Assembly (NCBI GenBank): GCA_016928695.1
Contig: JAFGKF010000118.1
Location: 1 to 50,038, forward strand
Direction: 5' to 3'
Origin: Candidatus Sumerlaeota bacterium
Lineage (GTDB): Bacteria; Sumerlaeota; Sumerlaeia; JABWBI01
Length of the DNA stretch: 50,038 nt
Below the pieces are notes generated by a model. The model saw only the letters and a program-made list of their open reading frames with translations, searched no databases and was not told the DNA's origin. The first letter of the stretch is position 1; each line of letters opens with the position of its first letter. This document shows positions 3,835-47,542 of the stretch, piece after piece. Made by a program: the position numbers and the translations under genes.

Positions 3835-3871
3835 AGAGACACCTCCGCTCTGAGGACAGAAGACGCTGGCC

Positions 3872-5344: not shown

Positions 5345-7506
5345 AAGCGTCGATGTACAAGATCGCCCTGATTTTCTCCGAGTCGGGTTTCCTCGAGGAG
5401 GAGCGCTTCCGCGCCATGCTGCGCGAGGCGGGCAAATCGCTGACCGAGATCCTTTTCTCGGACTTCAGCGGCCGCTCGGTCAAGGACCTGATCACCTACG
5501 AGATCCCCCTGCCCTTCACCAAGAGCAAGCGCGACCGGATGAAGGCGGAGCTCAGGCGCGACCTCAACATCTCCCCGGAGGAGCTGCGGGCGATTCTGAA
5601 GATGCACCCGCAGCGGGTGCCCGAGCTCTGCCAGATCCTCGAGGAGGCCGGCCTGCTCTGGCCCGACACCGCCAAGCAGGTGCGTGAGGGCATCGCGCAG
5701 GGCGGCGAGGCGCACATCGAGGCGATGCTGCGCGACATGGTGATCACCGTCGAGACACTGGCCACCTTCATCGGCAAGGAGAACTGGATCTCGCGGGGAG
5801 ACCGGCGGCGCCGCGCCGCCCACCTCCTGACCCACAACGGGATCCTCGAGGAGGACGTGGTCCAGAGGATCCTGGAGGCGCACGCCAACCAGGAGGGCAG
5901 GCTCAGCGACCTGCTCCAGAGCGTCGGGGGAATCAGCCAGTTCGAGCTCCTGCAGGCGATCCGCAGCGACCTCCATCTGCCGAAGGTCAACCTCACCACC
6001 ACCGAGATCGATCACGAGGTCGTCACCACCCTGCCCGCGCAGTTCCAGCGCCGTCACCTCACGATGCCCTTCAGGCGCATCGATGGGGCCGTCTGCCTGG
6101 CGATGAGCGATCCCCTCGACACCGCCCTGACCGACGCGCTCGAGCTCCTGACGGGACAGCCCCACATCGCGCACTTCGCGAGTCAGCGCGATCTCATCGG
6201 CAAGCTCAACATCGTCCTCCCCACCGCCGGAAGCGCGCCCGCCATGGCCATCGACGAGGAGGGCGTGCACGTCGATCCCTTCGACTCCTCCATGGGGGCG
6301 GAGACGGTGGTCGAGGACATGGAGGAGGACACCGACACCCTCGTCGACAACATCTCCACCGTCGAGCTGGTCTCCACGGTCATCGAGAGCGCCTTCGCCA
6401 CGCGCGCGACCGACATCCACCTCGAGCCGCTCCAGGACGAGGTCCGCGTCCGTTACCGAATCGATGGGCGCCTCAAGACAATCATGCAGTTCCCCCGCGA
6501 GATGCTCCTCCCGGTCGTCTCGCGCGTCAAAGTGCTCTGCGACCTCAACGTCACCGAGCGGCGGCGGCCCCAGGACGGGCACTTCTCGATCGACCTGGGC
6601 GCGGACTCCGTCGACCTCCGCGTCTCCGTCCTCCCCACCCATCTCGGCGAGAAGGTCGTCATCCGTGTGCTCGACGAGGCCAACGTGCTCAGAGGCCTCG
6701 GGGACCTCGGGATGCCCGACAGCGAGAGGGGACGCATCGGGCGCCTGCTCTCCAAGCCCCACGGCATGCTGATCGTCGGGGGTCCGACCGGATCGGGCAA
6801 GACGACGACGCTCTACGCCGGCCTCAACAGCCTCAACTCCGAGGACCGCAACATCGTCACCATCGAGGACCCCGTCGAGTACCGCATCGGCGGGATCAGC
6901 CAGATCCAGGTCGATCCGAAGATCGATCTGACCTTCGCCACAGGGCTGCGCGCCACGCTGCGCCAGGACCCCGACATCATCATGGTCGGCGAGATCCGCG
7001 ACACCGAGACCGCGAAGATCGCGGTCCGATCGGCCCTGACCGGCCACCTGGTGCTCTCGACCCTCCACGCCAACTCGTCGGCGGGGGTGGTGAGCGCGCT
7101 GCGCCACATGGGCATCCCCGCCTTCTCGGTGGCCAGCTCGCTGATCGGCGTGATCAGCCAGCGCCTCGTCCGCCGCCTCTGCACCGACTGCCGCGAGGCA
7201 TTCACCCCGAAAAAGGCTCTGAAGGAGGATCTCGGTCTGCCCCCGGGAACCCGCCGTCAGCTCTGGAAGCCCGTGGGCTGCGAGCGCTGCCTCGACATGG
7301 GATACCGCGGTCGCCTGGGCATCTTCGAGGTGTGGGAGATCAACGCCGCCATGCGCGAGGTGATTCTCAACGATGGATCGGAGACCGCCCTCACCGAGGC
7401 CGCGCAGTCAGGTGGCATGAGAACCCTGATGGAGAACGCACATCACCTGCTCCACGAGGGGATCACCTCGCCCGCGGAGGTGCTCCGCTCGGTGAGCCTG
7501 GACTGA
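5341..7506 (+). CDS. GspE/PilB-family secretion/pilus assembly ATPase (long, 721 aa)
   Basis: T2SSE_N-like segment LPAQFQRRHLTMPFRRIDGAVCLAMSDPLD. Walker A GGPTGSGKTTTLY, Walker B DPDIIMVGEIRD, His box GHLVLSTLHAN, tetracysteine CTDC...CERC. About 200 extra N-terminal residues. TTG 5341 lies about 10 nt after GAGGAGG; ATG 5353 is an alternative start. Confidence 0.9.
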   Translation: MKASMYKIALIFSESGFLEEERFRAMLREAGKSLTEILFSDFSGRSVKDLITYEIPLPFTKSKRDRMKAELRRDLNISPEELRAILKMHPQRVPELCQILEEAGLLWPDTAKQVREGIAQGGEAHIEAMLRDMVITVETLATFIGKENWISRGDRRRRAAHLLTHNGILEEDVVQRILEAHANQEGRLSDLLQSVGGISQFELLQAIRSDLHLPKVNLTTTEIDHEVVTTLPAQFQRRHLTMPFRRIDGAVCLAMSDPLDTALTDALELLTGQPHIAHFASQRDLIGKLNIVLPTAGSAPAMAIDEEGVHVDPFDSSMGAETVVEDMEEDTDTLVDNISTVELVSTVIESAFATRATDIHLEPLQDEVRVRYRIDGRLKTIMQFPREMLLPVVSRVKVLCDLNVTERRRPQDGHFSIDLGADSVDLRVSVLPTHLGEKVVIRVLDEANVLRGLGDLGMPDSERGRIGRLLSKPHGMLIVGGPTGSGKTTTLYAGLNSLNSEDRNIVTIEDPVEYRIGGISQIQVDPKIDLTFATGLRATLRQDPDIIMVGEIRDTETAKIAVRSALTGHLVLSTLHANSSAGVVSALRHMGIPAFSVASSLIGVISQRLVRRLCTDCREAFTPKKALKEDLGLPPGTRRQLWKPVGCERCLDMGYRGRLGIFEVWEINAAMREVILNDGSETALTEAAQSGGMRTLMENAHHLLHEGITSPAEVLRSVSLD

Positions 7507-7540
7507 CAGGGATCAAGAATGAGGACAGGAGTCTGAACCG

Positions 7541-8803
7541 ATGGCCAAGGACACAGGCGAGAGCCGCGCCCGCCAGCTCCGCGACGCGATCGCGAGCAAG
7601 CTGCGCGAGAAGAGCGACCAGGAGACCCTCGCCGGCGGCCAGCCCGCACGCCCCGCCGGCCAGCGCCCATCGGAGCCGCACCATCGGCCCGGTGAACCGG
7701 GCGTCGAGCAGCTCACCGTCGGCGAGACGGTGCGACAGATCCTGGGCACCCGCATCTCCCTGACCGGCCCCAAGGTCCAGGACATCGCCACCATGTGCCG
7801 CCAGCTGGCCACGCTGATCGACGTCGGCATCCCGCTGCTGCGCAGCATCAAGATCCTGGCCGAGCGCACGCAGCATCCCCAGCTCCGCCAGATCCTGCGG
7901 GAGATCGCCGACGACGTCGAGCAGGGATCGCCCCTCTCGACAGCGATGAAGAAGCACCCGCGCATCATCCCCCCGCTGATCACCAACATCGTCCAGATCG
8001 GGGAGAAGGGCGGCATCCTGGAGGACACCCTCCGCCGCCTGGCCGAGATCTACGAGCGCAAGGCGGAGATCAAGCGCAAGGTGCTCGCCGCGATGGCCTA
8101 CCCCATCGCCGCCATCATCGTCGCCATCTCCGTGGTCGCCCTCATCTTCGCCTACGCCATTCCCGTCTTCCAGGAGGTCTACACGCAGAAGGAGAACGTG
8201 GAGCTGCCGCGCATCACCCAGCAGGTGATCGCCGTCAGCGAGTTCGTCCGGGGCTGGTGGGCGCTCTACATCCCGCTTCTGGTGCTCATCTTCATCCTCG
8301 CCGTCTGGTATGGCCGCACCGTCCCGGGGCGGAGGCTCTACGACCGCCTGCGCCTGCGCCTCCCGATCATGGGCCCGATCAACATCAAGATCAATGTGGC
8401 CCGGGTCACACGCACGCTGTCGAACCTGCTCTCGGCCGGCATCCCGCTGCTCGAGGCCCTCAGCTCGACGGCCACCTCCTCCGAGAACGTGATCATCGCC
8501 GAGGCGCTGATCCGCACGCGGGACTCCGTCGAGGAGGGCGAGAAGATGGAGCCCGCCCTGCGCGAGAGCCGAGTCATCCCACCGATGGTTGTGGACATGA
8601 TCGCCATCGGCGACGAGGCCGGGGCGCTGGACAACGTCCTCGACCGGATGGCCGACGTCTACGAGGGCGAGGTCGATGCCTCGCTCAAGGGATTGGTCGC
8701 CCTGATCGAACCGCTGCTCATCATCTTCCTCGGAATCGTCGTCATCCTCATCGCCTTCGCCATTCTCCTGCCCTACTGGAACATCGGCGACCTGATCGAG
8801 TGA
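7541..8803 (+). CDS. GspF/PilC-family inner-membrane platform protein
   Basis: 420 aa with two T2SSF-type repeats (LLRSIKILAERT...GSPLSTAM...EKGGILEDTLRRLAE and LLEALSSTA...EEGEKMEPAL...IGDEAGALDNVLDRMAD) separated by hydrophobic spans. SD GAGGACAGGAG precedes the ATG. Confidence 0.9.
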   Translation: MAKDTGESRARQLRDAIASKLREKSDQETLAGGQPARPAGQRPSEPHHRPGEPGVEQLTVGETVRQILGTRISLTGPKVQDIATMCRQLATLIDVGIPLLRSIKILAERTQHPQLRQILREIADDVEQGSPLSTAMKKHPRIIPPLITNIVQIGEKGGILEDTLRRLAEIYERKAEIKRKVLAAMAYPIAAIIVAISVVALIFAYAIPVFQEVYTQKENVELPRITQQVIAVSEFVRGWWALYIPLLVLIFILAVWYGRTVPGRRLYDRLRLRLPIMGPINIKINVARVTRTLSNLLSAGIPLLEALSSTATSSENVIIAEALIRTRDSVEEGEKMEPALRESRVIPPMVVDMIAIGDEAGALDNVLDRMADVYEGEVDASLKGLVALIEPLLIIFLGIVVILIAFAILLPYWNIGDLIE

Positions 8804-27836: not shown

Positions 27837-27865
27837 CAATTCGTCCCCCGCAAACCGCTTGACAG

Positions 27866-29860
27866 ATGCCCCCCATGGGTCCAGCGAACGAACACTTTTT
27901 TCAGGGCGGAGGTGCCGAGCCCTTGGCCAAAGCGAACAGACCCCAGCCGTCGCCTATCCGGACGCTGGGACCGATCTCCGATCTGGAGCGCCATCTCCCC
28001 ACCGACTGGTGGCAGACGCTGTTCAACTCGGTCTATCTGAAGACCGACGGTGATGTCGTCGAGAACGCCGCCAACACCGGCGCCGAGGTGGAGCTTCTCA
28101 TCAGCCGGGCTGGGCTGGAGCCGAACGACCACATTCTGGACCTCTGCTGCGGGCAGGGACGCCACAGCCTGGAGCTGGCCCGCCGGGGATTCCGTGAGGT
28201 CACCGGCGTGGACCGATCGCGCTACCTCGTGCGTCTCGCCCGCCAACGCGCGAAGCGGGAGGGGCTGAAGGTCACCTTCCGCGAGGGCGACGCCCGCCGG
28301 GTCCGCCTCCCCCAGAACTCCTTTCACTGCGTGGCGATCATGGGCAACTCCTTCGGCTACTTCGAGCAGGAGGAGGACGACCTCGTGGTCCTGCGCGGCG
28401 CCGCCCGCACCCTGCGACCCGGGGGGACGCTGGCGCTGGATCTGACCGACGGCGACTGGATGCGCGAGCACTTCGAGCCACGCTCCTGGGAGTGGATCGA
28501 CCAGGAGCACTTCGTCTGCCGCGAGCGGTCGCTCGCCTCCGACGGCCAGCGCCTGATCTCGCGCGAGGTCGTCGTCCACGCGGAGCGCGGCGTCATCGTC
28601 GATCAGTTCTACGCCGAGAGGCTCTACTCGGAGGAGGCGATCCGGACTCTGCTCGACCGCGCGGGCTTCGAGACCGTCCGACTCCACGGCCCCGTGGAGG
28701 CGAGCTCTGAGCGCGGTCAGGATCTGGGCATGATGGCCCACCGGATGTTCCTCACCGCCAATGCCCCGCGTGCCACCGCCACCGTCTCCAAGAGGCGCAG
28801 GGTGCTCTTCCCCAGTGTCACCGTTCTGCTGGGGGATCCCACGCTCCCCGACACCATCAAGCTGGATGGGCACTTCAACCCCGAGGACATCGAGACCGTC
28901 AACCGCCTCAAGAGCGCCCTGGAGGAGATCGAGGGACGCACCTTCGAGTTCATCGACAACCACGCCTCGCTCCTGACCGCGCTGCGCTCCTCCCCCCCGT
29001 CCTTCGTCTTCAACCTGTGCGATGAGGGTTACAACAACGAGGCCTTCCTCGAGCTCCACGTGCCCGCCGTTCTCGAGATGCTCGGCATCCCCTACACCGG
29101 CGCCGGCCCCTCATGCCTGGGGCTGTGCTACAACAAGGCGCTGGTGCGGGCCATCGCCGCCACCCTCGACATTCCGGTGCCGCTGGAGACCTTTTTCGAT
29201 CCCGACGATCAATCGGCCACTCTCCCGTCCACCCTGCCCGCCCTGGTCAAACCCAACTTCGGCGACAGCAGCGTGGGCATCACGATGGAGAGTGTCGTCC
29301 ACAGTCCCGAGGAGCTGATCGGATACATCCACCACCTCAAACAGGAGTTCCCCCACCGACCGCTTCTGGTTCAGGAGTTCCTCACGGGCGCGGAGTACAG
29401 CATCGGGATCGTCGGCAACCCCGGACAGACAGCGCGTGTGCTGCCCCCCCTCGAGGTCGACTTCAGTCAGCTCCCCGCCAATTTCCCCCCCATCCTCGGG
29501 TACGAGTCGAAGTGGGATCCCGCCTCACCCTACTGGACCCTGCTCCGCTATCACCAGGCCGACATGGACGAGGACACCCTCCGCGAGCTGTCGGACCAAT
29601 CCATGCTCCTCTTCGAGAGACTCGGCTGCCGCGACTACGCCCGGTTCGACTTCCGCGCCGATGCCGACGGGGTGATCAAACTGCTCGAGGTCAACCCCAA
29701 CCCCGGATGGTGCTGGGACGGGAAGTTCAACATGATGGCGGGCTTCGGCGGACTCCGCTATGCCGACCTCCTGCGCCTGATCCTCGATGCGGCCGCCGAG
29801 CGGGTGGCCGCGGGAGAGGGCAACGGCCATCTCCCGGCACCCGCAGCCGCCACTCCCTGA
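27866..29860 (+). CDS. Fusion protein: N-terminal class I SAM-dependent methyltransferase plus C-terminal D-Ala-D-Ala-ligase-like ATP-grasp enzyme
   Basis: MT motif I ILDLCCGQGRHSLELARRG and post-I/II motifs (VTGVDRS, GDARRVRL, VAIMGNSFGYF, LRPGGTLALD). After the linker NAPRATATVSKRRR comes an ATP-grasp: LVKPNFGDSSVGI, LVQEFLTGAEYSIGIVG, DYARFDFRADADGVIKLLEVNPNPGW. There is no in-frame stop between the halves. An alternative TTG start at 27923 has GGAGGTG 8 nt upstream. Confidence 0.8.
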   Translation: MPPMGPANEHFFQGGGAEPLAKANRPQPSPIRTLGPISDLERHLPTDWWQTLFNSVYLKTDGDVVENAANTGAEVELLISRAGLEPNDHILDLCCGQGRHSLELARRGFREVTGVDRSRYLVRLARQRAKREGLKVTFREGDARRVRLPQNSFHCVAIMGNSFGYFEQEEDDLVVLRGAARTLRPGGTLALDLTDGDWMREHFEPRSWEWIDQEHFVCRERSLASDGQRLISREVVVHAERGVIVDQFYAERLYSEEAIRTLLDRAGFETVRLHGPVEASSERGQDLGMMAHRMFLTANAPRATATVSKRRRVLFPSVTVLLGDPTLPDTIKLDGHFNPEDIETVNRLKSALEEIEGRTFEFIDNHASLLTALRSSPPSFVFNLCDEGYNNEAFLELHVPAVLEMLGIPYTGAGPSCLGLCYNKALVRAIAATLDIPVPLETFFDPDDQSATLPSTLPALVKPNFGDSSVGITMESVVHSPEELIGYIHHLKQEFPHRPLLVQEFLTGAEYSIGIVGNPGQTARVLPPLEVDFSQLPANFPPILGYESKWDPASPYWTLLRYHQADMDEDTLRELSDQSMLLFERLGCRDYARFDFRADADGVIKLLEVNPNPGWCWDGKFNMMAGFGGLRYADLLRLILDAAAERVAAGEGNGHLPAPAAATP

Positions 29861-33898: not shown

Positions 33899-36181
33899 TC
33901 ACTCAGAGCGAAGTGCCGTCAGCTCGCAGGGGACGGTCCCATTCGCCTCGAACAGAAGATTGTCGAAGTGTCCGCCCTGCGCGTTGCTGTTGGTTGAGAA
34001 ATACTCGTGATAGGCGAGGCCGACCCGGCCTCGGCGATGAGTCGTGTCCTGGGTGTCGACCAGGATCGAGCCGTCGAGATAGTAGCGGATGCTCTTGCCC
34101 ACCGTCTCGATCCGGAAGGTGTGCCACCCGTCGGACGACAGTGTCAGCGGATAGAGCTCCATGAAATCCGTCTCCACACCGTCGACGATGACCATCGCCT
34201 GGACCCGCCCCGTGTCCGAGTCGAACGTCAGGGCATAGCAGTTGCCTCCGCCGTGGTTCGCGCTGTCGAATGCGGCGTTGCCGTCGTCCCGGGCGAAGAT
34301 GCCCGCGCGCTCGAAGCCATCGGAGGCGACCCCCGGCCGGAGATCGCAATAGACATCTGCCTCGATGGTGTAATCGCTGTCGTCGGCACCGCCGAGCGAC
34401 ACGGTCTCATAGCCCCCCGTGGGATCGAGCACCTCGAGAGCATATCCATCGCCCCCCGGCGCGGGGGGGGCGAAGGCCACGACGGGATTGGTCGAGAACT
34501 TGTCCTCGAACGGCAGTGTGCGGCCGGACGAGGGGCAGTCATCGCTCATCGGCAGCGACGAGGTGCGCGATTCGCGGACGAGCATGATCGCGTTGGCGAT
34601 GGCGCGCTGAGTCCCGACCGGTGCCCCCGAGGGCACGTTGGCCAGTGCGCCGTTGATCACCAGGGTGGTGGAACCCCCACCGTCGAGATTGATCGCATCG
34701 CGAACACCCAGCGTGTGCCGAAGAAAGTCGGACATCATCTGGAAATCCGCCCCGATCGTCGTGGGGGCATTGCGCCCGTCGAACGTCACAAACCAGTGCC
34801 TCGATCCATCCGACGCGATCACCGTGCGGGGATGGAGCTCATCCCAGAAGCCGTACTGCGTCCAGCCGGAGCCGGTCACCTGCGCGTAATCCGACACGAG
34901 GTGTCCCGCCCCGTGTGTGATCACAGACGTGCTGTTGAGGATCGAGGGGCCGAGATCGACGCGGACCGCCACCGTCTGCCCCACGACCGCGTTCGCGAGC
35001 ACTCCCGCCTCCGCGCCGGGGCAGCCGCGGATCACGAGGCCGTCGGCCGGGATCGCGCTGTTGACCGACTGGGCTCCCGTGCGCACCTGGGTGATCGTGC
35101 CCTCGACGGTCTTCTCGGCGCGGATGGGCCAGTTGACGTCCTCGACGATCACCTCGACGGCCTGAGTGGTCGACAGCGTGGAGGCCCCCCAGATCGGCGT
35201 GTAGACGATCACCTCGCCGTCGATGTTGTCGTAATTCAGGTGACCGATCGGGGTGGTGGCGGCGCTCTCCCAGAGGAGATCAGCTGTGTATCCCCCGAAC
35301 CCCGCCGGAGAGGGACGCCTCACCCACGTGTCGCCCGACTCGAGCGTGGCGAAGACATCGTTGTGACCCGAGAGGCTCGGAATGCCGTCGAGATTGCCAT
35401 CCGTCGCAATCGTCCCCCCACCGATGGAATCCGTCGGCCCCCCGAGGTCAAAGAAAGCGCAGTTGATGGCGGCGACCACGTCGTGCCCCGGCGAGTCGTA
35501 GCGGCTCACCATGGTCGTCAGCGGCTCACGACCCACCGTGTTGTAATTGCGGCTCTGATGCGCCCACCCCATCTCGAGATGATACTCGGGACTGGTGAGA
35601 TCGAACTCGACGACGTCGCAGATCGTCGGCCCCTCGATCCGCCAGCGGGTGTGCACCACGCCCGGCGACACCGTCTCGGTCAGCAGCAGCTCGGGCGGTG
35701 TGGGCGGAGGCGGTCCCCCCTCAGAGAAGCGGACCGCGTCGGCGATGACCACGCTCCCGCCGGAGCTGCTCGCCGCCTGGAGCTGCACCGTGGCAGGGCC
35801 CGCGCTGAAATCGAAGAGCCCCAGCGACGTCCAGTTGCCCCCACCGCTCTGATCGATGTCCACACTCTGAGGCCCGGAGGCCGTCTGCACCACATAGCGG
35901 GTGCTCGTCGCGCGGTTGGTGCCCGGCACATACCAGACCGCGACCTCATACTGAGTCGTGGACGCGAGCGTCGCGGACCACGTCGCGGTGCTGCTTCCCC
36001 CCGCGGTGGCGTAGCGATAGGTGCCCCCATCGTAGCCGACAGATCCGCTGGTCGCCCAGCTCCCCGTCTCCACATAGCCGGGGGATCCATCGTCGTTGTC
36101 GAGAATGATGACTTCGGCCGAGATGCTGGAAACAGGCGCCACCAGCGCAAGGCCGGTGAACACCCATGTCACCCGATTCAT
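33899..36181 (-). CDS. Secreted three-module protein: golvesin-C-like domain, phosphodiester glycosidase (NAGPA/DUF2233-like) and a LamG/DUF1080-like C-terminal domain
   Basis: Signal peptide MNRVTWVFTGLALVAPVSSISA. N-terminal module IILDNDDGSPGYVETGSWATS...YEVAVWY...LGLFDF...IADAVRF. Central INLDGGGSTTLVINGA hallmark. C-terminal WHTFRIETVGKSIRYYLDG...GRVGLAYHEYFSTNSNAQGGHFDNLLFE. Confidence 0.7.
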   Translation of the reverse strand: MNRVTWVFTGLALVAPVSSISAEVIILDNDDGSPGYVETGSWATSGSVGYDGGTYRYATAGGSSTATWSATLASTTQYEVAVWYVPGTNRATSTRYVVQTASGPQSVDIDQSGGGNWTSLGLFDFSAGPATVQLQAASSSGGSVVIADAVRFSEGGPPPPTPPELLLTETVSPGVVHTRWRIEGPTICDVVEFDLTSPEYHLEMGWAHQSRNYNTVGREPLTTMVSRYDSPGHDVVAAINCAFFDLGGPTDSIGGGTIATDGNLDGIPSLSGHNDVFATLESGDTWVRRPSPAGFGGYTADLLWESAATTPIGHLNYDNIDGEVIVYTPIWGASTLSTTQAVEVIVEDVNWPIRAEKTVEGTITQVRTGAQSVNSAIPADGLVIRGCPGAEAGVLANAVVGQTVAVRVDLGPSILNSTSVITHGAGHLVSDYAQVTGSGWTQYGFWDELHPRTVIASDGSRHWFVTFDGRNAPTTIGADFQMMSDFLRHTLGVRDAINLDGGGSTTLVINGALANVPSGAPVGTQRAIANAIMLVRESRTSSLPMSDDCPSSGRTLPFEDKFSTNPVVAFAPPAPGGDGYALEVLDPTGGYETVSLGGADDSDYTIEADVYCDLRPGVASDGFERAGIFARDDGNAAFDSANHGGGNCYALTFDSDTGRVQAMVIVDGVETDFMELYPLTLSSDGWHTFRIETVGKSIRYYLDGSILVDTQDTTHRRGRVGLAYHEYFSTNSNAQGGHFDNLLFEANGTVPCELTALRSE

Positions 36182-36362
36182 GCTGATTCCTCCCTGGGCT
36201 CCGCGCGCAGTCCCTGCACGTGAATCTGCCCACTCGACCTGGGGGGAGGCAAGGCGGTTTGTCCCATCCGAGATTAATTCTTCTGCACCGACTCAGTGAT
36301 ACGACACGCGGAGCGGAGCCTCGCTCATCCCAAGCGCACATGGTCTCCATTGGACCGGTCAA

Positions 36363-38192
36363 TCACCGGGTGTTCAGGCCCGTCGAAGCCGCCACCGACG
36401 GGAGGGACTCCACACGGAACGACTCCGCATGGGTCCCCTGGGCGTTGCTGTTGGTGGAGAAATACTCGTGATACCCCACCCCACAGCGCCCCCGGGCGTG
36501 ACTGGAGTCGGTGGCGTCGGCGATCACCTCCCCATCGACGAGGTAGCGGATGCGATCGCCCACGCACTCGATGCGGAAACGCCGCCAGGCGTCGGAGGGG
36601 AGAAGCACGGGTTCGGATTCGCGGAGGTCGATCATGACGCCATCGACAACGACGGCCGCACGGACTCGACCTGTGTCGGTGTCGAACGTCAGAGCATAGC
36701 AGTTGCCCCCGCCGATCGAGGGGCTCTCGAAATTGCCGTTCCCGCTGTCGCGGGCGAAGAGGCCCACCCGCTCGAATCCATTGGCGGCCACCTCGGGGCG
36801 ATGATCGCAGCGCACCAGCGCCTCGACGGCGATGTCCTCATCCCCCGGTCCGCCGACTGACGTGGTCTCGAAGCCGCCCGCGGGATCCATGACCTCCAGC
36901 ACCCAGCCGTCGCCCCCCGGCGCCGCCGGGGCGAATTCGACGACGGGATTGAACGTGAACTTGTCGTCCCAGGTCAGCGTCCGTCCCTCAGCCGTGAAGT
37001 CATCGACCAGGGGAAGGGCCGAGGTCGGATCGCGCCGCACGAGGAGGAGCGCATTGGCGACAGCGCGCTCCGTCCCCGTGCAGGGGGGATCCGCGTTGTC
37101 CGAGGGGCAGTTGACCACCACGCCGTCGATCACCATCGTGGTCGACCCGCCACCGTCGAGGTTGATCGCCTGCTCCGCCCCCAGCGTGTTGATCAGGAAG
37201 TCGGCCATCTCCGGGAAATCCATCCCGATGCTGTATCCGGGCTGACGACCGTCGAAGGTCACCAGCCAGTGGCGCGTCCCGCTCCACGCCAGCACAGTGC
37301 GGGGATGACGGTCGTCCCAGAACCCGAAATTGGACCAGAGGGGCGTGTTGGGCTCGCCGCCCTCCACAAGCCACCCCGCCCCCCCGGCGAGGAGTCGGGC
37401 ATTGTTGAGAACGCTCAGCGCGAAGTCGAAGCGCACCGTGATCCGATCACCCACGCTCACATGGGCGAGCACAGTGTCGGCGGGTGCATCGCGCGCGGCG
37501 AGCACGAAGCCGCCCGAGGGAATCGCGTTGTCGATGGACTCCGCGCCCGTGCGCACAGCCGTCACCGTGCCCTCGATGGCCTTGTCGGGCCTCATCGGGA
37601 AGGAGACGTCCTCCACGATCACCTCGACGCCCTCGGCCGTTGTCGTGGTCGTGGGTCCCCACACCGGCGTGTACATCGCCATCGAGTTCGTCTGGCGGGT
37701 GAGGTTCAGGAGATCGATGGCCTGCTGAGTGCCATCGGCGCAGGTCACCACGCCCTGCGAGGCGGTGACATTGCGCCCGATCCACCCCTCGGCCGACTCC
37801 TGGAGCATGTAGACCTCCCACGTGTTGTTCGGGCGGCCGATCAGCTCACCACCACTGGCCAGGGGCCCCTTGATCTCGATGACCCCCGGGCCGAAGAAGC
37901 CGCAGTTGATGCCCATCACGACCTCGTGGCCGGAGGCGTCGTATCGCGCCGCGATGACGCTCGTGGGCTCGCGACCCGTCTCGTGGTTGCGGATCCCCTG
38001 CGCGAATCCCATCTCGATCGTGCACTCCGGGCTGGCGAGATCCACCTCCACCACGTGGGCCACGACCGGCCCCGGCAGATTGTGAACGGTGTGCAGCACA
38101 CCGGGGGCGATCTCCCCCGCACCGATGCGTGAGACTGTCAGGGCGAGGAGAGCCCCGAGAGAGATGAGGTGGAACCGATGAGTGGTGTTCAT
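36363..38192 (-). CDS. Secreted phosphodiester glycosidase (NAGPA/DUF2233-like) with a LamG/DUF1080-like C-terminal domain; paralog of 33899..36181
   Basis: Signal peptide MNTTHRFHLISLGALLALTVSRIGA. INLDGGGSTTMVIDGV. C-terminal WRRFRIECVGDRIRYLVDG...GRCGVGYHEYFSTNSNAQGTH. Collinear with the neighbour but lacks its N-terminal module. Confidence 0.7.
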   Translation of the reverse strand: MNTTHRFHLISLGALLALTVSRIGAGEIAPGVLHTVHNLPGPVVAHVVEVDLASPECTIEMGFAQGIRNHETGREPTSVIAARYDASGHEVVMGINCGFFGPGVIEIKGPLASGGELIGRPNNTWEVYMLQESAEGWIGRNVTASQGVVTCADGTQQAIDLLNLTRQTNSMAMYTPVWGPTTTTTAEGVEVIVEDVSFPMRPDKAIEGTVTAVRTGAESIDNAIPSGGFVLAARDAPADTVLAHVSVGDRITVRFDFALSVLNNARLLAGGAGWLVEGGEPNTPLWSNFGFWDDRHPRTVLAWSGTRHWLVTFDGRQPGYSIGMDFPEMADFLINTLGAEQAINLDGGGSTTMVIDGVVVNCPSDNADPPCTGTERAVANALLLVRRDPTSALPLVDDFTAEGRTLTWDDKFTFNPVVEFAPAAPGGDGWVLEVMDPAGGFETTSVGGPGDEDIAVEALVRCDHRPEVAANGFERVGLFARDSGNGNFESPSIGGGNCYALTFDTDTGRVRAAVVVDGVMIDLRESEPVLLPSDAWRRFRIECVGDRIRYLVDGEVIADATDSSHARGRCGVGYHEYFSTNSNAQGTHAESFRVESLPSVAASTGLNTR

Positions 38193-38249
38193 GAGGGGCG
38201 GAGACTACCCCCCGGATGGCGGCAGATCAATCCTCGACTCAGTCGAAGT

Positions 38250-41920: not shown

Positions 41921-42985
41921 TCACAGCGGCGGCGGCAGCTTGACCTGGGGCCGGACGGGGGGGCGGGGCGCGGGAGGCGCCTGGCCCGACCAGCGCGCAG
42001 TGACGGTCGGCCACCAGTGGCCGAGCTCGAGGGCGACGCCCGCCAAAAGCTCGAGGGTCGGCGCGAACTCGGCGGCGCTCTGGGCCATCGTGGGGCCGAA
42101 GAGAACGCCCCCGGGCCCGTCCTTCGCCCGCCAGGGCACCGCGATCGCCGCCGCGAGGGGATCGCCCTTCTCGCCGTGCCAGTGGAGCGCCTCGCCTGAC
42201 CGCAGCACGACCTCGAGGAGCACGACAGAGAACTCGGCGCTGTGCCCTCCCTCGCCGCTCAGCTGGAGCGAGAGCGTCTTCCCCTTCGGAGCGGGGATCA
42301 GCGCCCCCGCCCAGGGCTGCTCGGTCAGGCGGCGGACGATGGAGAGAATGTCCGTCCAGAGCACCCCGGCGTCGGACGCACTGAGCAGCGCCGCGTGGAG
42401 CTGCTGGTAGATCTCGATGTGGCGAATCAAGCGCGGCCGGTCCCACTGCCGCATCTCCGATCGGGCGGGGACGAGCGGCTCGCGCCGCACGGGGCGATGG
42501 AGCACCGTGGCATCGCGCAGAGGGGGATCGCCGATCCCCGGCCCCTCACCCACGGGCCATTCGATCTCCAGATCGGGCACCGCGGTCCAGGCCATCGCGC
42601 CGAGCCCCTGCTGGCCCTCCCTGAATCCGATGTCGACCTGATCGCTCGCCGCCGGCTCCTCCTTCCCCGCCTTCGGCGCGGGGGGCACGGCACCCCCGGA
42701 GTCGCGAAATCGCAGGTTGGTCTCCCCGATGGTGAGGACGTCGCCGTCCTCGAGCACCTGCTCGGAGACGAGATCCCCGTTGATCAGAGTGCCGTTGACG
42801 CTCGCAAGGTCCCGAACCATCCACCTCCCCTCATCCGTGGCTCGGATCTCGGCGTGGTAGCGCGACACGGTCTTGTCGTTGAGAGGCAGCGTGTTGTCCG
42901 GTGCGCGTCCGATGGTCGCCCCCTCTCTGGCCAGATCGGTGGCCGGGTGCGAGGATTCGCTGCCGAGCAGGATGAGCTGAGCCAT
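41921..42985 (-). CDS. FHA-domain protein with a GAF-like C-terminal domain
   Basis: ATG 42985 is preceded by GGAGGGAG. FHA: ATIGRAPDNTLPLNDKTVSRYHAEIRATDEGRWMVRDLASVNGTLING. A Pro-rich linker is followed by a roughly 170-aa alpha/beta region. The track ORF extends spuriously to 43321. Confidence 0.8.
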   Translation of the reverse strand: MAQLILLGSESSHPATDLAREGATIGRAPDNTLPLNDKTVSRYHAEIRATDEGRWMVRDLASVNGTLINGDLVSEQVLEDGDVLTIGETNLRFRDSGGAVPPAPKAGKEEPAASDQVDIGFREGQQGLGAMAWTAVPDLEIEWPVGEGPGIGDPPLRDATVLHRPVRREPLVPARSEMRQWDRPRLIRHIEIYQQLHAALLSASDAGVLWTDILSIVRRLTEQPWAGALIPAPKGKTLSLQLSGEGGHSAEFSVVLLEVVLRSGEALHWHGEKGDPLAAAIAVPWRAKDGPGGVLFGPTMAQSAAEFAPTLELLAGVALELGHWWPTVTARWSGQAPPAPRPPVRPQVKLPPPL

Positions 42986-43027
42986 GTCTCCCTCCGCCGT
43001 CCTCTGTTCAGTCCTGTGACGGAAACA

Positions 43028-43057
43028 TTGCACAGCCAGACTGGAACGTTCTATACT
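43028..43057 (+). promoter_or_regulatory. Candidate promoter, TTGCAC-N18-TATACT
   Basis: Located in the AT-richer 120-nt divergent region, about 50 nt upstream of ATG 43110. Confidence 0.4.
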
Positions 43058-43109
43058 TTCTTCGCGGAACACAGACTCCCTCAGCCTCACTCCACGGTTT
43101 GGATATTTG

Positions 43110-45890
43110 ATGACCCCCCGCCGACTCCTCCCCCTGACGCTGCTGACGCTGCTCATCGCGCCGGTCATCTCTGCGGCTCTGGCCCAGGAGCCCGCCGAGA
43201 CCGATGACGATTGGACCGTCATCATCTTTGAGAATGGCAACCGGATCCGCGGCCAGATCATCCCCTCACGCCCCGGCGAGCCGGTGGCCGTCCCCGAGTC
43301 GGGCTGGATCAACTTCCGCACCGAGACCGGGACGCGGATGCGCTACAACATGGATCTCATCCGCGAGGTGATCCTCCCCGAGCAGCGCCACGAGGCGGCG
43401 GCCGAGGAGATGATCACCGAGATCCGCCGGATGTTCTACATCCAGGCCGACCTGCTGGGCGCGCTGGAGGAGACCACCCGCCTCCACGCGATCGCCCCGA
43501 ACAACCCCGAGGTGCTCGAGCTCTGCTGGGAGATCGCCCTGGCCGTCTACGAGCAGGCCCAGGATCTCACCGAGGCGGGGGATTTCACCAGCGCCTTCCG
43601 CCACTGGGACGCTCTCGTCAACCACTTCCAGGAGACCGGCCTGCGCTTCGAGAATCCCACGCCGGAACCGGGGGAGCCGATCGACCTCACCCACTCCTTC
43701 GAGAGAGACCTGATCGCCGCGCTTCAGATGAGGGTGGAGGGCCTCATCACGGAGGCCGAGCTCCACGACCCCGTCGACCTCGACCTCCTCCGCGAGGCGC
43801 TCGTCTACAATCAGCGTCTGCTGCAGAGGGCGCCCAGCAGCCTCCCGGCCCATCTCAACGCCATCGACATCTCCGAGGCCCGCGGCGACCTGCGCGCCGC
43901 CCTGAGGCAGGCCGAGACCCTGCGCGACCGCCTGGGCTCGATGCCGGGGATCACCCGCCACTCCCAGGAGCTGGTCGACCTGCGCATCCAGGATCTGCAG
44001 CGTAGGATCGAGGGAGGGCAGCCGTCCGGTCGTCCCCCCAGTCCCCTTCCGGATATTCTCAGCGGGCTGGGCACAGGGCCGACCGAGCCCACGGCCCGGC
44101 CGACGCCCCCCACGCCGACCCCAACCGCGCCCTCGCCACCGCCCAGCGTGGGGCCGTCCCCTGCCCCGACGGTGGACACCTCCTCTTCGCCCCCACCCAC
44201 TCCATCACCCCGGATGGGTCTGTGGCAGAGCCTGAAAAGACGCCTCAGCGATCGCGATTTTGCCGGGGCCTTCGCGGACATCCGTGAGTGGGTGGAGGAC
44301 AACAGCAGTGTCACCTACCCGGTGGGCATCGGCCTGCTGGCCCTGATCTTCCTCTGGGTCGTGCCCTACAAAATCGCCGCGCGGCGGGCCCGGGCGGGGG
44401 GAATCATCGCCTCGATGTGGGCGCCGCGGCTCAAGCGCTACGGCCCCTTCGCCATCGCTGGGCTGATCCTGTCGCCGATGGGCAAGCTGATGCCCGGCAG
44501 CGCGCGCCGCCGCCGGGCCCTGGAAAAAGAGGTCGGGCAGCTCTGCCCCCACTGCGGCGGAATCCTCGAGAACGTCCAGCTCTACCGGGATCTGCGCTTC
44601 GATCTCTGCCCCCACTGCCGGGAGGAGATCCCCCCTCTGTACGATCTGACGGATCACATTCACCAGCTGATCATTCACATCGATCGGGTGCGGGGCGGGA
44701 GATCGCTGGGCGCCGAGGCCCTGGAGAACGATGAGCACCGCGACGCGATGCTCCGGCTGGTCAAGGCCGTCATGACCCTGGCGGTCCGGCAGCGGGCAAG
44801 CGACCTGCACGTGGACGCCTCGGGCGACGGCCTCGACCTGCGCATCCGCGTCGACGGCAGCCTGCGGTCGATGGACATCCACATCTCGAAGGCGGTGGAG
44901 CGGGCCTTCGTCAGCGCCATCAAGGTCATGGCGAACCTCGACATCACCGAGCGGCGCGCCCCCCAGGACGGGCGGTTCGAGATCGACATCGACGGCTCGG
45001 ACATCGACGTGCGCATCAACACGAGCCCGACGGGCCTGGGCGAGAAGATCTCGATGCGCCTGCTCGACATCCGGTCGGTCCGCGTGCCCCTGCCCAAGCT
45101 GGGCATCTCGGCCCAGGCGCTGCCCATCTTCACGCGGGCGATCCACTGCCCCAGCGGCCTGATCCTCGTCACCGGCCCCACCGGATCGGGCAAATCGACC
45201 ACGCTCTACGTCGCGCTCAACGAGATCAACAGCGGCACGCGCAACATCGTGACGATCGAGGACCCGATCGAGTTCATCTTCAAGGGGCTCAACCAGCACC
45301 AGGTCAACCCGGCAGCCAACTTCACCTTCGCCACCGGCCTGCGCTCGATCATCCGCCAGGACCCCGATGTGATCATGGTCGGCGAGATCCGCGACAACGA
45401 GACCGCCGACATCGCCGTCAACGCCGCGACCACAGGCCACCTGGTGCTGACCACCCTCCACACCAACGACGCGGCGGCCGCCTACCCGCGCCTGGCGGAG
45501 TTCGGCGTCGACCCCTCGCGCTTCGCCCCCGTCATGCAGATCATCGTGGCCCAGCGCCTGCTCGCGCTCAACTGCGAGCGGTGCAAGGAGCCGCATCAGC
45601 CCTCCCCGGCGACCCTCTCGGCCCTCGAGATCCCCGATCACGACATCATCTTCTACCGGGGAGTCGGCTGCGAACACTGCCAGAACACCGGCCTCCACGG
45701 ACGGACGGGCCTCTTCGAGATCCTGGAGGTCACCGCCGAGATCTGCGCCCTGATGGAGGGCAAATCCCCCGTCAACGCCGTGCGCGAGACCGCCCGCCGG
45801 TCAGGGATGCGGACCATCCGCGAGGAGGGTCTGATCCGGGTGATGGAGGGATTCGCCACGCCGGAGGAGGTGCTGAGGGTGATCAGCTGA
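43110..45890 (+). CDS. Atypical GspE/PilB-family ATPase fused to a signal peptide, an N-terminal non-ATPase domain, a Pro/Thr linker, a TM anchor and a zinc ribbon
   Basis: Signal-like MTPRRLLPLTLLTLLIAPVISAALAQEP, then about 300 aa of beta and helical-repeat region. Linker PPSPLPD...PTPPTPTPTAPSPPPSVGPSPAPT. TM VGIGLLALIFLWVVPYKIAA followed by RRARAGG. CPHCGG...CPHCREE. ATPase core: Walker A VTGPTGSGKSTTLYV, DPDVIMVGEIRD, GHLVLTTLHTN, CERC...CEHC. One continuous GC3-biased frame. Confidence 0.8.
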   Translation: MTPRRLLPLTLLTLLIAPVISAALAQEPAETDDDWTVIIFENGNRIRGQIIPSRPGEPVAVPESGWINFRTETGTRMRYNMDLIREVILPEQRHEAAAEEMITEIRRMFYIQADLLGALEETTRLHAIAPNNPEVLELCWEIALAVYEQAQDLTEAGDFTSAFRHWDALVNHFQETGLRFENPTPEPGEPIDLTHSFERDLIAALQMRVEGLITEAELHDPVDLDLLREALVYNQRLLQRAPSSLPAHLNAIDISEARGDLRAALRQAETLRDRLGSMPGITRHSQELVDLRIQDLQRRIEGGQPSGRPPSPLPDILSGLGTGPTEPTARPTPPTPTPTAPSPPPSVGPSPAPTVDTSSSPPPTPSPRMGLWQSLKRRLSDRDFAGAFADIREWVEDNSSVTYPVGIGLLALIFLWVVPYKIAARRARAGGIIASMWAPRLKRYGPFAIAGLILSPMGKLMPGSARRRRALEKEVGQLCPHCGGILENVQLYRDLRFDLCPHCREEIPPLYDLTDHIHQLIIHIDRVRGGRSLGAEALENDEHRDAMLRLVKAVMTLAVRQRASDLHVDASGDGLDLRIRVDGSLRSMDIHISKAVERAFVSAIKVMANLDITERRAPQDGRFEIDIDGSDIDVRINTSPTGLGEKISMRLLDIRSVRVPLPKLGISAQALPIFTRAIHCPSGLILVTGPTGSGKSTTLYVALNEINSGTRNIVTIEDPIEFIFKGLNQHQVNPAANFTFATGLRSIIRQDPDVIMVGEIRDNETADIAVNAATTGHLVLTTLHTNDAAAAYPRLAEFGVDPSRFAPVMQIIVAQRLLALNCERCKEPHQPSPATLSALEIPDHDIIFYRGVGCEHCQNTGLHGRTGLFEILEVTAEICALMEGKSPVNAVRETARRSGMRTIREEGLIRVMEGFATPEEVLRVIS

Positions 45891-45954
45891 TATCACAGGG
45901 TTTGCGCCGTGCCGGGGAACCCCCTCCCCCCCCCTCCCTTTTTCCCTCTCGAGC

Positions 45955-45983
45955 TTGACACGCCCACAGCCGCTCTGTACAAA
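45955..45983 (+). promoter_or_regulatory. Candidate sigma70-type promoter, TTGACA-N17-TACAAA, for rpsT
   Basis: Consensus -35 box, 17-nt spacer, 4/6 match in the -10 box, about 40 nt upstream of ATG 46021. Confidence 0.5.
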
Positions 45984-46020
45984 CACGCGCTCAATTGCAC
46001 ACAGGACGGACCTGAAACCC

Positions 46021-46284
46021 ATGCCCAACAACCAGTCGGCGAAGAAGCGCATGCGCCAGAACGCCAAGCGCCGCGAGCGCAACCGCGCTGCCAAGAGCGC
46101 GATGAAGACGGCCATCAAGAAGGCGAAGGCCGCGCCCAGCGACGACGCGCTCTCCCACGAGGCCCTGCGCACCATCGGCAAGACCGCCAAGCGCGGCGTC
46201 ATCCACGCCAACAGGGCCGCCCGCCTGGCGAGCCGCCTGCAGCGACGGATCAATGCGGCCAAGAGCGAGTCGCCGGCCAGCTGA
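46021..46284 (+). CDS. rpsT: 30S ribosomal protein S20
   Basis: MPNNQSAKKRMRQNAKRRERNRAAKSAMKTAIKK is the typical S20 N-terminus. 87 aa. The track ORF start at 45955 is the TTG of the promoter -35 box. Confidence 0.9.
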   Translation: MPNNQSAKKRMRQNAKRRERNRAAKSAMKTAIKKAKAAPSDDALSHEALRTIGKTAKRGVIHANRAARLASRLQRRINAAKSESPAS

Positions 46285-46313
46285 CCCCCTCCCCACCCCA
46301 GGGACATCGATCG

Positions 46314-46339
46314 GCGCGGCCCTCTCGCGGGGGCCGCGC
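46314..46339 (+). terminator. GC stem-loop after rpsT, with a weak U-tract
   Basis: GCGCGGCCC-N8-GGGCCGCGC. Confidence 0.3.
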
Positions 46340-46435
46340 TCGCTGCATCTGGGACCTTTGGAGTTGATCTGCCCGCCGCGCGAGATAAGGTGAATCCACT
46401 GCGAGGGATGTGCCAGTGGAAGGAGCAGAGAACCG

Positions 46436-47542
46436 ATGGCCAACGCGGAAAATCCGATCACCCAGCTTCTCAACCGGATGGTTCAGTGGCACGCATCCGA
46501 CCTGCACCTGCAGAGCGGAATCGTCCCATTCGTCCGCATCGAGGGAAAGCTGAGACCCGTCGACTGCCGCCCGCTGCGGCAGGATGAGATCGACGAGTTC
46601 GCCGGGGAGATTCTCGACGACCGCCACCGCAGGCTCTTCAAGGAGCGGGGCAGCGTCGATGTCGGCCACGCCTTCTCCAAGCGGATCCGCTTCCGCGTCA
46701 ACGTCTACAACCAGCGCGGGACGACCTCGGTCGCCTTCCGACTGATCGACTGCGACGTCCCCAGCGCCAAGGAGCTGTGCCTGCCCCCGGTGATCGAGAA
46801 GATCACGGACACCAAGCGGGGCATCATCTTGGTCACCGGCCCCGCGGGCTCGGGCAAGTCGACGACATTGGCCTCGATGATCGATCTGATCAACACCAAG
46901 CGATCCGAGCACATCATCACCGTCGAGGACCCGATCGAGTTCCTCCATGAGAACAAGAAGAGCCTGATCGAGCAGCGCGAGATCGGGTCGGACGCCGCCG
47001 ACTTCTACATCGCCCTGACCCACATGCTGCGGCAGGACCCCAACGTTCTGCTGATCGGCGAGATCCGTGACCTGGAGACCGTCACGATGTCGATCCGCGC
47101 CGCGCTGACGGGGCACCTGGTCTTCTCCACCCTTCACACGATCGGCACCATCCAGACGCTCGAGCGGCTGCTCCAGTACTACCAGCGCGAGGAGCGCGAG
47201 GCGGTGCGCAGCGAGCTCGCGCTGAGCATGCGATCGGTGATCAGTCAGCGCCTGGTGCCGGGCATCGACGGCAAGCGCTACCCGTGCGTCGAGGTCATGG
47301 TGGCCCTGGGAGTGATCCCCAAGCTCCTCCGCGAGGGTCGCTACGACGACATCATCATCGCCATCAAGGGCCGAGAGTACGGGATGCAGACGTTCGATCA
47401 GTCTCTGGTTGACCTCTTCGCGCGCAAGCTGATCTCCCTGGAGATCGGCGAGGCCCACGCCGATGACCCGGGCGGATTCAAGCGCATGGCCGCCGGCGGA
47501 TTCTCCTCCGACGACCGAGGAGCGATCATCTCCGACCTCTGA
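46436..47542 (+). CDS. pilT: PilT-family pilus retraction ATPase
   Basis: LLNRMVQWHASDLHLQSGIVPFVRIEG, Walker A VTGPAGSGKSTTLASMIDLIN, DPNVLLIGEIRD, GHLVFSTLHT. 368 aa and no N-terminal extension. SD GGAAGGAG. Confidence 0.85.
   Translation: MANAENPITQLLNRMVQWHASDLHLQSGIVPFVRIEGKLRPVDCRPLRQDEIDEFAGEILDDRHRRLFKERGSVDVGHAFSKRIRFRVNVYNQRGTTSVAFRLIDCDVPSAKELCLPPVIEKITDTKRGIILVTGPAGSGKSTTLASMIDLINTKRSEHIITVEDPIEFLHENKKSLIEQREIGSDAADFYIALTHMLRQDPNVLLIGEIRDLETVTMSIRAALTGHLVFSTLHTIGTIQTLERLLQYYQREEREAVRSELALSMRSVISQRLVPGIDGKRYPCVEVMVALGVIPKLLREGRYDDIIIAIKGREYGMQTFDQSLVDLFARKLISLEIGEAHADDPGGFKRMAAGGFSSDDRGAIISDL

Follow-up and report, generated by a model that had tools for sequence, protein, structure and literature searches.

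It is not yet understood mechanistically how the motor ATPase of a type IV pilus or type II secretion system (T2SS) is recruited to its machine or how it communicates with components in the periplasm; to our knowledge, both depend on separate adaptor proteins in all systems studied. A gene in a 50,038-nt stretch of DNA from a Candidatus Sumerlaeota bacterium (assembly GCA_016928695.1, contig JAFGKF010000118.1, positions 1 to 50,038, forward strand; hereafter the window) raises the question of whether a motor of the PilB/GspE family can be built into the membrane itself. Its 926-residue product, here called the window ATPase, combines a complete PilB/GspE motor with a predicted transmembrane helix and a predicted periplasmic half. 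We consider it probable, from sequence and structure prediction, that this product is a type IV filament motor of the extension type, bitopic and tethered in the membrane. Since the motor appears to be hard-wired both to the membrane and to a domain in the periplasm, it could offer a simplified system for structural work on coupling.

The motor core, its predicted membrane anchor and its outer half

Pfam recognized a single domain in the window ATPase, T2SSE (PF00437), which covers aa 544-923 with an E value of 2.5e-115; it scores 385.5 bits where the cut-off is 24.9, and 5-370 of the 370 profile positions are matched. The motifs GPTGSGKST (aa 689-697), IEDPIE (716-721), DVIMVGEIRD (753-762), and TGHLVLTTLHTND (775-787) are present, and Walker A, the Asp box, Walker B, the His box, and the cysteines C822, C825, C854, and C857 (CERC at aa 822 and CEHC at aa 854) all fall in invariant columns of a 94-member family alignment. 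This confirmed that the ATPase core is complete, as had been claimed in an earlier reading made from the DNA letters alone (the sequence-only reading). Sequence matches in the Protein Data Bank (PDB) reached E values of about 1e-101 for PilB and GspE (best, 3e-101) versus about 1e-35 for PilT, and GspE ranked first and PilB second among NCBIfam models. On sequence, the window ATPase is thus to be classed as an extension-type (PilB/GspE) and not as a retraction-type (PilT) motor. An AlphaFold2 (AF2) model of the full-length monomer, built on the 94-sequence alignment, had a mean predicted local distance difference test (pLDDT) score of 87.6, with values of >90 in the motor region. Foldseek matched the modeled motor to PilF, PilB, and GspE structures; for 5oiu_B and 5tsh, the TM-scores normalized to the target (TMt) were 0.92-0.93 (0.93 for 5oiu_B), the root-mean-square deviation was ~2 Å (2.1 Å for 5oiu_B), and the identity was 43-44%.

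The domain that precedes the motor in other family members was also searched for. No MshEN/T2SSE_N domain (PF05157) was found in the window ATPase at E values up to 0.1, nor up to 10 on fragments, in agreement with the earlier claim that the N1 domain is absent. Its place is occupied by a putative zinc ribbon, CPHC-x17-CPHC, with CPHC at aa 479 and 500. C479, C482, C500, P501, and C503 of this element are invariant in the 94 sequences, and a weak Pfam match to Zn_ribbon_TFIIB was obtained at aa 479-504 (E 0.002-0.008). No Pfam model spans the module that runs from the transmembrane helix through a basic helix to the zinc ribbon. This module is conserved and unannotated and could be given a domain model of its own.

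To judge topology, we inspected motifs and compiled hydropathy and charge statistics over 94 full-length family members. The window ATPase has a hydrophobic peak at aa 6-24 (Kyte-Doolittle hydropathy over 19 residues [KD19], 2.29) and another at aa 400-418 (KD19, 2.08), the latter being followed by KIAARRARAGG. The transmembrane helix with its RRARAGG, the CPHC pair, and the Pro/Thr/Ser linker of the sequence-only reading were accordingly all found in place. In the family, an N-terminal hydrophobic segment (12-residue hydropathy [KD12], >2) was present in 86 of the 94 members, and a transmembrane helix with a KD19 of >1.6 was present in 92. The 15 residues on the N-side of this helix carry, on average, 1.3 Lys/Arg and 1.9 Asp/Glu, while the 15 residues on its C-side carry 3.8 and 1.2, respectively; for the ~49 residues between the helix and the zinc ribbon, the family means are 11 Lys/Arg and 2.3 Asp/Glu (13 and 2 in the window ATPase). 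By the positive-inside rule, these charges place the zinc ribbon and the ATPase in the cytoplasm, where an ATPase has to be, and the N-terminal ~370 residues outside it, which supports an N-out, C-in topology with a predicted periplasmic outer domain and a predicted cytoplasmic motor.

Two details of this topology deserve comment. The N-terminal segment could be a Sec signal that is cleaved off or a first transmembrane helix that is retained, and in both cases the domain that follows it would be periplasmic. It does have the hydrophobic, signal-like start and A-x-A motif of the cleavable-looking signal peptide proposed earlier, but cleavage is a prediction; an A-x-A with a conserved Asp behind it, immediately ahead of the beta domain, suggests a signal peptidase I site. 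If the segment were kept as a first transmembrane helix, the protein would resemble classical two-helix receptors. The second detail is the short hydrophobic segment at aa 446-460. It lies within the basic juxtamembrane segment (aa 421-475), which is 93% identical to that of P0001, a 921-aa protein from a Joint Genome Institute (JGI) metagenome. Basic on both sides and modeled by AF2 as a short helix, it is best read as a putative in-plane or re-entrant helix.

The AF2 model orders the parts as beta strands (aa 36-88), nine helices (90-300), a spacer, two juxtamembrane helices, and the transmembrane helix (402-428), which is followed by helices at 432-444, 446-460, and 464-475, the zinc ribbon (478-510), a connecting helix (513-530), and the N2 and ATPase domains. 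A model of aa 1-535 alone concurred (pLDDT, 84.4). The outer half thus consists of five predicted strands (36-40, 45-50, 66-71, 76-80, and 84-88; pLDDT, ~90) and nine TPR-like helices, reaffirming the beta plus helical-repeat composition that had been proposed for it. Foldseek returned only generic TPR or helical-repeat proteins for this half, the best being a designed CTPR (9qhc_B; E 7e-4) with low TM-scores, and no specific functional analogue. Pfam gave TPR_19 at E 1 as its sole match to the TPR-like region of the window ATPase, and precomputed Pfam results include faint or weak TPR matches in some homologues. The linker (aa 301-375) contains 24 Pro, 11 Ser, and 10 Thr in 75 residues; its spacer is 62% identical to that of P0001, with an 8-codon in-frame indel.

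Spurious long open reading frames (ORFs) are abundant in the window, which has ~68% G+C, and the coding signal was therefore tested directly. The G+C content at third codon positions (GC3) was 0.77-1.00 in all 60-codon windows of the frame, from codon 1 to the stop, and that at second positions (GC2) was at typical coding levels except in the Pro-rich linker, where CCN codons raise it. P0001 is 86% identical to the window ATPase and collinear over its entire length. The two genes differ by 50 synonymous and 42 amino-acid-changing codons in the N-domain (aa 26-300) and by two indels, of 3 and 8 codons, both in frame. By this codon pattern, the N-terminal half is under purifying selection. A more distant relative, P0060 (910 aa; 64% identical), has an identical order of parts. 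Upstream of the gene, a candidate sigma-70-like promoter was recognized by a consensus scan. Its TATACT hexamer and the ATG start are unchanged in the three upstream regions of the window, L001, and L123, loci of closely related genomes; a strong Shine-Dalgarno sequence was looked for in the start region of the window gene and was not found. Homologues were of full length, with a conserved N-terminal half and no consistent start at an internal Met, the finding that the sequence-only reading had named as one that would count against it. The other outcomes that it had listed as refuting were not observed either.

The family and its comparison with known systems

The family was traced with HMMER, by which aa 1-535 found 52 matches among 1.84 billion representative proteins; 23 of these had E values of <1e-10. 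With few exceptions, the matched proteins are 780-1020 aa long and align to query aa ~330-530 through equivalent positions of their own chains. Almost all have the same order of parts: an N-terminal hydrophobic segment, one strong transmembrane helix at aa ~340-380, CxxC-x17-CxxC ~65 residues on, Walker A ~205 residues past the CxxC pair, and then a C-terminal tetracysteine. The module alignment contains W-x-x-P within the transmembrane helix, R-R-G-D immediately past it, a second, short stretch of hydrophobic residues, and, in the zinc-ribbon region, CPxCxKxIDNIExYxDLNFxxCPHCxENITPVYxLxDYIxHL. Queries with the N-terminal half or the full length were swamped by the low-complexity Pro/Thr/Ser linker, and aa 369-926 were chosen in order to avoid it. 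This query retrieved >100 clusters of 800-970-aa proteins at 43-51% identity and 90-100% query coverage, and all clusters with a named taxon were Candidatus Sumerlaeota, Sumerlaeia, or BRC1. A search of GTDB genomes with a two-sequence alignment of the N-terminal half found no relatives.

The outer part of the protein differs among members. A beta-domain-like motif follows directly on the signal segment in the sequences of relatives, and in nine translated Sumerlaeota N-termini, a signal segment was followed by a beta motif that begins at the conserved Asp and then by a helical region with a Pro-rich spacer after it. Some members have a beta and a TPR-like part; others (P0069 and P0024) have only the beta part and a long Pro-rich spacer. 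Because the outer part is variable, the conserved unit of the family is the transmembrane helix, the basic/amphipathic segment, the zinc ribbon, and the motor. We also observed members with a short-stub ectodomain (P0148-P0153; 583-636 aa) and with several extra transmembrane segments (P0042, P0043, and P0054), all retaining the core.

A DNA-motif scan of GTDB genomes for Y-x-D-x-x-F-x-x-C-P-[HYND]-C-x-E gave at least 119 matches, mostly archaeal; among the motif matches listed, at least nine Sumerlaeota genomes carry true relatives. The motif-matched loci L004-L122, at least ~110 in number, are nearly all archaeal (Methanosarcinales, Thermoplasmata, Methanobrevibacter, and Heimdallarchaeota), and a rough chance expectation is ~10 matches in the whole collection. 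This suggests that the archaeal matches belong to an unrelated, conserved putative zinc-ribbon protein that shares the same short motif.

The proposal that this architecture is undescribed stands in part. In the literature, no description of a membrane-anchored PilB/GspE ATPase was found, a failure to find that is not proof of absence, and PMC12943098 (on Leptospira cyclic di-GMP) and PMC8092238 (on Sumerlaeota genomics) contained nothing relevant to it. The architecture is not unique, however; it occurs in >100 clusters and is common within the Sumerlaeota, an uncultured phylum. Genomes from Table 1 of PMC8092238 have a G+C content of 54-60%, lower than the 68% of the window. Product names of the homologues are generic ("ATPase, T2SS/T4P/T4SS family," "GspE/PulE family protein," "hypothetical," or even "TadA"), and genome annotation thus labels these proteins as generic GspE/PilB or TadA. 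With generic names alone in the databases, the architecture appears, on sequence, to be a newly recognized variant of the known PilB/GspE motor family. Its practical impact is limited, as no cultured host is among the homologues found and the function is a prediction.

Compared with PilB/PilF (Geobacter PilB, 5tsh; Thermus PilF, 5oiu), the window ATPase has the same motor of N2 and C-terminal domain, with Walker A and B, Asp box, His box, and tetracysteine zinc site. However, PilB/PilF proteins are soluble, with at least one MshEN/GSPII domain at the N-terminus, whereas the window ATPase has none and instead has the zinc ribbon, the basic segment, the transmembrane helix, and the predicted periplasmic TPR/beta part, and its gene does not adjoin pilC or a pilin gene. 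GspE is its best NCBIfam match (TIGR02533), yet below the equivalog cut-off, and unlike GspE it has no N1 domain and no adjacent gsp genes. In the complex of GspE-N1 with GspL, the motor is joined through a single transmembrane helix to a periplasmic domain, and the window ATPase would achieve this in one chain. A GspL-GspE fusion was nevertheless rejected, because membrane polarity and periplasmic fold differ: GspL runs from a cytoplasmic N-terminus to a ferredoxin-like C-terminal domain in the periplasm, while the window ATPase is predicted to have the opposite polarity and a TPR-like fold. ExeA/GspA, an accessory ATPase of the T2SS that sits in the membrane and binds peptidoglycan through a periplasmic domain, provides a precedent, by analogy only, for the coupling of a cytoplasmic NTPase to the periplasm; it differs in belonging to the AAA+ family and in its opposite domain order.

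A further parallel was found in two T2SSE ATPases of 654-672 aa from other metagenomic bacteria, P0002 and P0004. They share with the window ATPase a signal-like start, a small beta domain of similar motif, a spacer rich in Pro, hydrophobic segment(s), and the T2SSE core, and their genes likewise stand alone among housekeeping genes. In contrast, they lack the zinc ribbon and the TPR part, show no similarity in the N-terminal half, and have a motor 39% identical to that of the window ATPase. A relationship of the window N-terminal half to that of P0002 was considered and rejected, as BLASTP gave no real similarity. These proteins may represent a membrane-anchored motor that arose independently or is only very distantly related, and membrane anchoring of the motor may have arisen more than once. 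Their genes (L002, 10001-11965; L003, 10001-12019) lie between ssb and cvpA, and the proteins have two hydrophobic segments.

Neighboring genes and the proposed function of the anchored motor

The genes around the window ATPase were also examined. The divergently transcribed neighbor encodes an FHA protein, as the sequence-only reading had recognized (E 8.5e-19; 68.2 bits versus a cut-off of 20.7; PDB matches to FHA domains down to E 1e-11), but the GAF-like part of that description is unproven, since GAF_3 matched at E 0.15 with 12.9 bits, below the cut-off of 27. Pfam gave no domain in the C-terminal part of this protein, and no PDB sequence matched outside the FHA domain. The intergenic region, described before as about 120 nt and AT-richer, measures 124 nt and has a G+C content of 0.61-0.62 versus about 0.69. 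Downstream, rpsT alone separates the ATPase gene from the gene for PilT, whose identity was established by TIGR01420, consistent with the earlier description. The C-terminal domain of the FHA protein (aa ~180-330; 41996-42448, minus strand) is conserved, including a GHWWPT motif, and the protein is 42% identical over its full length, this domain included, to its syntenic counterpart at L123.

Conservation of this arrangement proved to be narrow. The FHA gene on the minus strand, ATPase-rpsT-pilT, and then genes of the GNAT and EEP families are kept in the window and L001, and L123 retains the FHA-ATPase-rpsT-pilT core. In the six more distant neighborhoods whose flanking genes were read, the family ATPase stands alone among housekeeping genes, with no FHA, PilT, or pilus gene of any kind. 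In 8-kb blocks from nine Sumerlaeota genomes, tblastn detected no match to the window FHA, rpsT, or PilT protein. Conservation of the FHA neighbor beside homologues, which the sequence-only reading had proposed to check, was thus seen only in the lineage of the window. With so narrow a conservation, the FHA and PilT neighbors say little about function. In L124, L125, L126, and L129, panC and a Bac_transf gene lie upstream of the ATPase gene and a GT4 glycosyltransferase gene lies downstream, and in L128, proS and LigT adjoin it. In L127 (7001-13007; Candidatus Sumerlaeia, GCA_054681655.1), a HATPase_c histidine-kinase-like gene starts 8 nt downstream of the ATPase gene and is followed by a response regulator gene; on sequence, this hints at a regulatory pairing unlike that with FHA in the window.

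The window itself carries a pilin-like protein, a PilB, a PilC, and a PilT, and therefore filament machinery exists in this organism. The motor of the membrane-anchored ATPase is 42% identical to that of the window's own PilB, of which it is, by sequence, an additional paralogue. The PilC/GspF platform at 7.5 kb had been suggested as its partner. This suggestion is weakened, because an MshEN-containing PilB is encoded directly upstream of the platform, which thus already has a partner ATPase.

Collectively, these results lead us to favor, as the probable function, a membrane-tethered filament motor of the following kind. The motor, modeled here as a monomer and presumed to be hexameric, would be held permanently at the membrane by six helices and would need no recruitment by an N1 domain through GspL, PilM, or PilC. 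It would most likely drive a machine of the type IV filament class (a pilus or a T2SS-like endopilus) via a PilC/GspF platform whose gene lies elsewhere. Flexible spacers of ~70 residues would let the six periplasmic TPR/beta modules reach periplasmic or outer-envelope partners such as peptidoglycan, a secretin, alignment proteins, or a ligand, and the state of the envelope would be coupled to the motor in one polypeptide. The single chain would thereby replace the tether and periplasmic link given elsewhere by GspL/GspM or PilM/N/O. In the window's lineage, control through phospho-threonine may come from the FHA protein, and a retraction partner from the downstream PilT. The one-polypeptide link from periplasm to motor that had been claimed earlier is thus supported by the architecture and by a charge bias that places the N-terminal half outside, but the sequence-only reading gave too much weight to the FHA, PilT, and GspF neighbors.

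Several observations weigh against this reading. No pilin, platform, secretin, or alignment gene adjoins the ATPase gene in any of the seven neighborhoods whose flanking genes were read, as the sequence-only reading had noted of pilin and platform genes in the window; because of this, the link to a filament machine derives solely from family membership. The sole PilC of the window is immediately preceded by its own canonical PilB, and the linkage to FHA and PilT is confined to three closely related genomes (window, L001, and L123). The window ATPase scores below the NCBIfam equivalog cut-offs for GspE (TIGR02533; 467.3 versus 630.25 bits) and PilB (TIGR02538; 437.9 versus 675.65 bits), because only its C-terminal ~390 residues align. 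The second, weaker hydrophobic segment at aa 446-460 (KD, 1.2-1.4 in the window ATPase and higher in some relatives) could complicate the topology, and both topology and signal cleavage were derived from hydropathy, charge bias, and motifs rather than from a dedicated predictor or an experiment.

A bolder version of the tethered-motor proposal, which we regard as tentative and doubtful, is that the six TPR/beta modules form the periplasmic cage otherwise made of PilN/O/P or GspL/M/C, or that they sense a ligand or the envelope and thereby gate the motor across the membrane. The Sumerlaeota filament machine would then be stripped down or directly signal gated, and this mode of motor recruitment and control would be one not yet described for PilB/GspE ATPases.

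It is also conceivable, if rather unlikely, that the protein is a receptor-like sensor ATPase in which an uncleaved first transmembrane helix, a periplasmic TPR/beta sensor, a second transmembrane helix, and a cytoplasmic output are arranged as in chemoreceptors and sensor kinases, with the PilB-type motor serving another process (envelope or exopolysaccharide export, or regulation) without a PilC platform. The isolation of the gene in all neighborhoods read would fit such a role, as would the Bac_transf and GT4 glycosyltransferases near it in three loci, the kinase and response regulator in another, and the pairing with an FHA regulator in the window's lineage. The variability of the outer domain, multi-transmembrane versions included, is likewise typical of sensor modules. 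However, these neighbors differ by lineage and provide no consistent partner, and the A-x-A followed by a conserved Asp resembles a signal peptidase I site, which speaks against an uncleaved helix. Furthermore, the motor keeps all features of an extension ATPase, including the tetracysteine site and its ~43-45% identity to PilB/PilF/GspE structures, and we know of no PilB/GspE-type ATPase that works without a platform protein.

An inverted topology, in which the N-terminal 370 residues are cytoplasmic, the transmembrane helix and aa 446-460 form a hairpin, and the TPR part is a cytoplasmic interaction module, is decidedly improbable. The position of the second hydrophobic segment is conserved family-wide, its 13-residue hydropathy (KD13) exceeds 2 in one quarter of members, and P0002 and P0004 have two comparable hydrophobic segments. 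Nevertheless, the segment comprises only ~14 hydrophobic residues in the window ATPase, and its basic flanks would both be cytoplasmic by the positive-inside rule, as would be expected of a helix that is in-plane or re-entrant. The main transmembrane helix has an acidic or neutral N-side, and 86 of 94 members begin with the signal-like segment and signal-peptidase-like motif. Long Pro/Thr/Ser spacers are, moreover, typical of exported proteins. Finally, although spurious long ORFs are common in high-GC genomes and the start region lacks a strong Shine-Dalgarno sequence, the notion of a chance ORF, a misassembly, or a wrong start with a soluble product from an internal start is scarcely credible, because the GC3 over the whole frame, the purifying selection and in-frame indels of the N-terminal half, the confident AF2 fold of the N-domain, the layout of P0060, the >100 independent full-length homologues, and the constancy of the promoter-like hexamer and ATG rule it out.

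Features and further genes of the window

The coordinates of the ATPase gene, its parts, and its neighbors are collected in Table 1, together with those of the other filament genes. The latter form a conventional type IV pilus/T2SS-like set (3854-8803) ~34 kb upstream of the ATPase gene, and an lpxL-like acyltransferase gene lies directly after it.

Table 1. Positions of the ATPase gene, the parts of its product, and associated genes in the window
Feature	Residues (aa)	Position (nt)	Strand	Basis
Pilin-like protein with prepilin-type N-methylation motif		3854-4285		
Canonical PilB with MshEN domain (E 1.7e-13)	731 in all	5311-7506		
PilC/GspF platform		7523-8803		
Divergent FHA protein; FHA at aa 24-87 (nt 42725-42916), conserved C-terminal domain	354 in all	41921-42985	-	Pfam, PDB
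Candidate sigma-70-like promoter, TGCACA-17-TATACT, ~50 nt 5' of ATG		43029-43057	+	Consensus scan; sequence match only
Membrane-anchored PilB/GspE-type ATPase gene, complete	926 in all	43110-45890	+	ORF, GC3, full-length homologues, AF2
Signal-peptide-like N-terminus (MTPRR, hydrophobic core, ALA then QE)	1-25	43110-43184	+	Hydropathy; cleavage predicted
Small five-strand beta domain, predicted periplasmic	35-88	43212-43373	+	AF2
TPR-like helical-repeat domain, nine helices, predicted periplasmic	90-300	43377-44009	+	AF2; pLDDT >90
Disordered Pro/Thr/Ser-rich spacer	301-368	44010-44213	+	Composition; pLDDT <50
Predicted transmembrane helix with family W-x-x-P motif inside	400-420	44307-44369	+	Hydropathy, AF2, family charges
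Basic, predicted cytoplasmic juxtamembrane segment with short second hydrophobic helix (446-460)	421-475	44370-44534	+	Charge, AF2
Putative zinc ribbon	478-510	44541-44639	+	Invariant Cys, weak Pfam match, alignment
PilB/GspE motor core: N2 (541-660) and C-terminal ATPase domain (661-926)	541-926	44730-45887	+	PF00437, PDB, Foldseek
Walker A	689-696	45174-45197	+	Invariant column
Tetracysteine site	822-857	45573-45680	+	Invariant columns
rpsT (ribosomal protein S20), between ATPase and PilT		46024-46284	+	PF01649, E 4.7e-20
PilT-family retraction-type ATPase	368 in all	46436-47542	+	TIGR01420, 400.6 bits versus cut-off of 319.1

Two further loci in the window were observed. On the minus strand at 33899-38204, two large proteins with phosphodiester glycosidase (NAGPA) domains are encoded by adjacent genes; one of them also carries a Golvesin C-terminal domain, a combination that is unusual in a bacterial genome. 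At 27863-29860, a 665-aa protein combines an S-adenosylmethionine (SAM)-methyltransferase domain (aa 91-188) with a C-terminal ATP-grasp domain of the D-Ala-D-Ala-ligase type (aa 457-641), and its gene sits between those for S-adenosylhomocysteine (AdoHcy) hydrolase and SAM synthetase.

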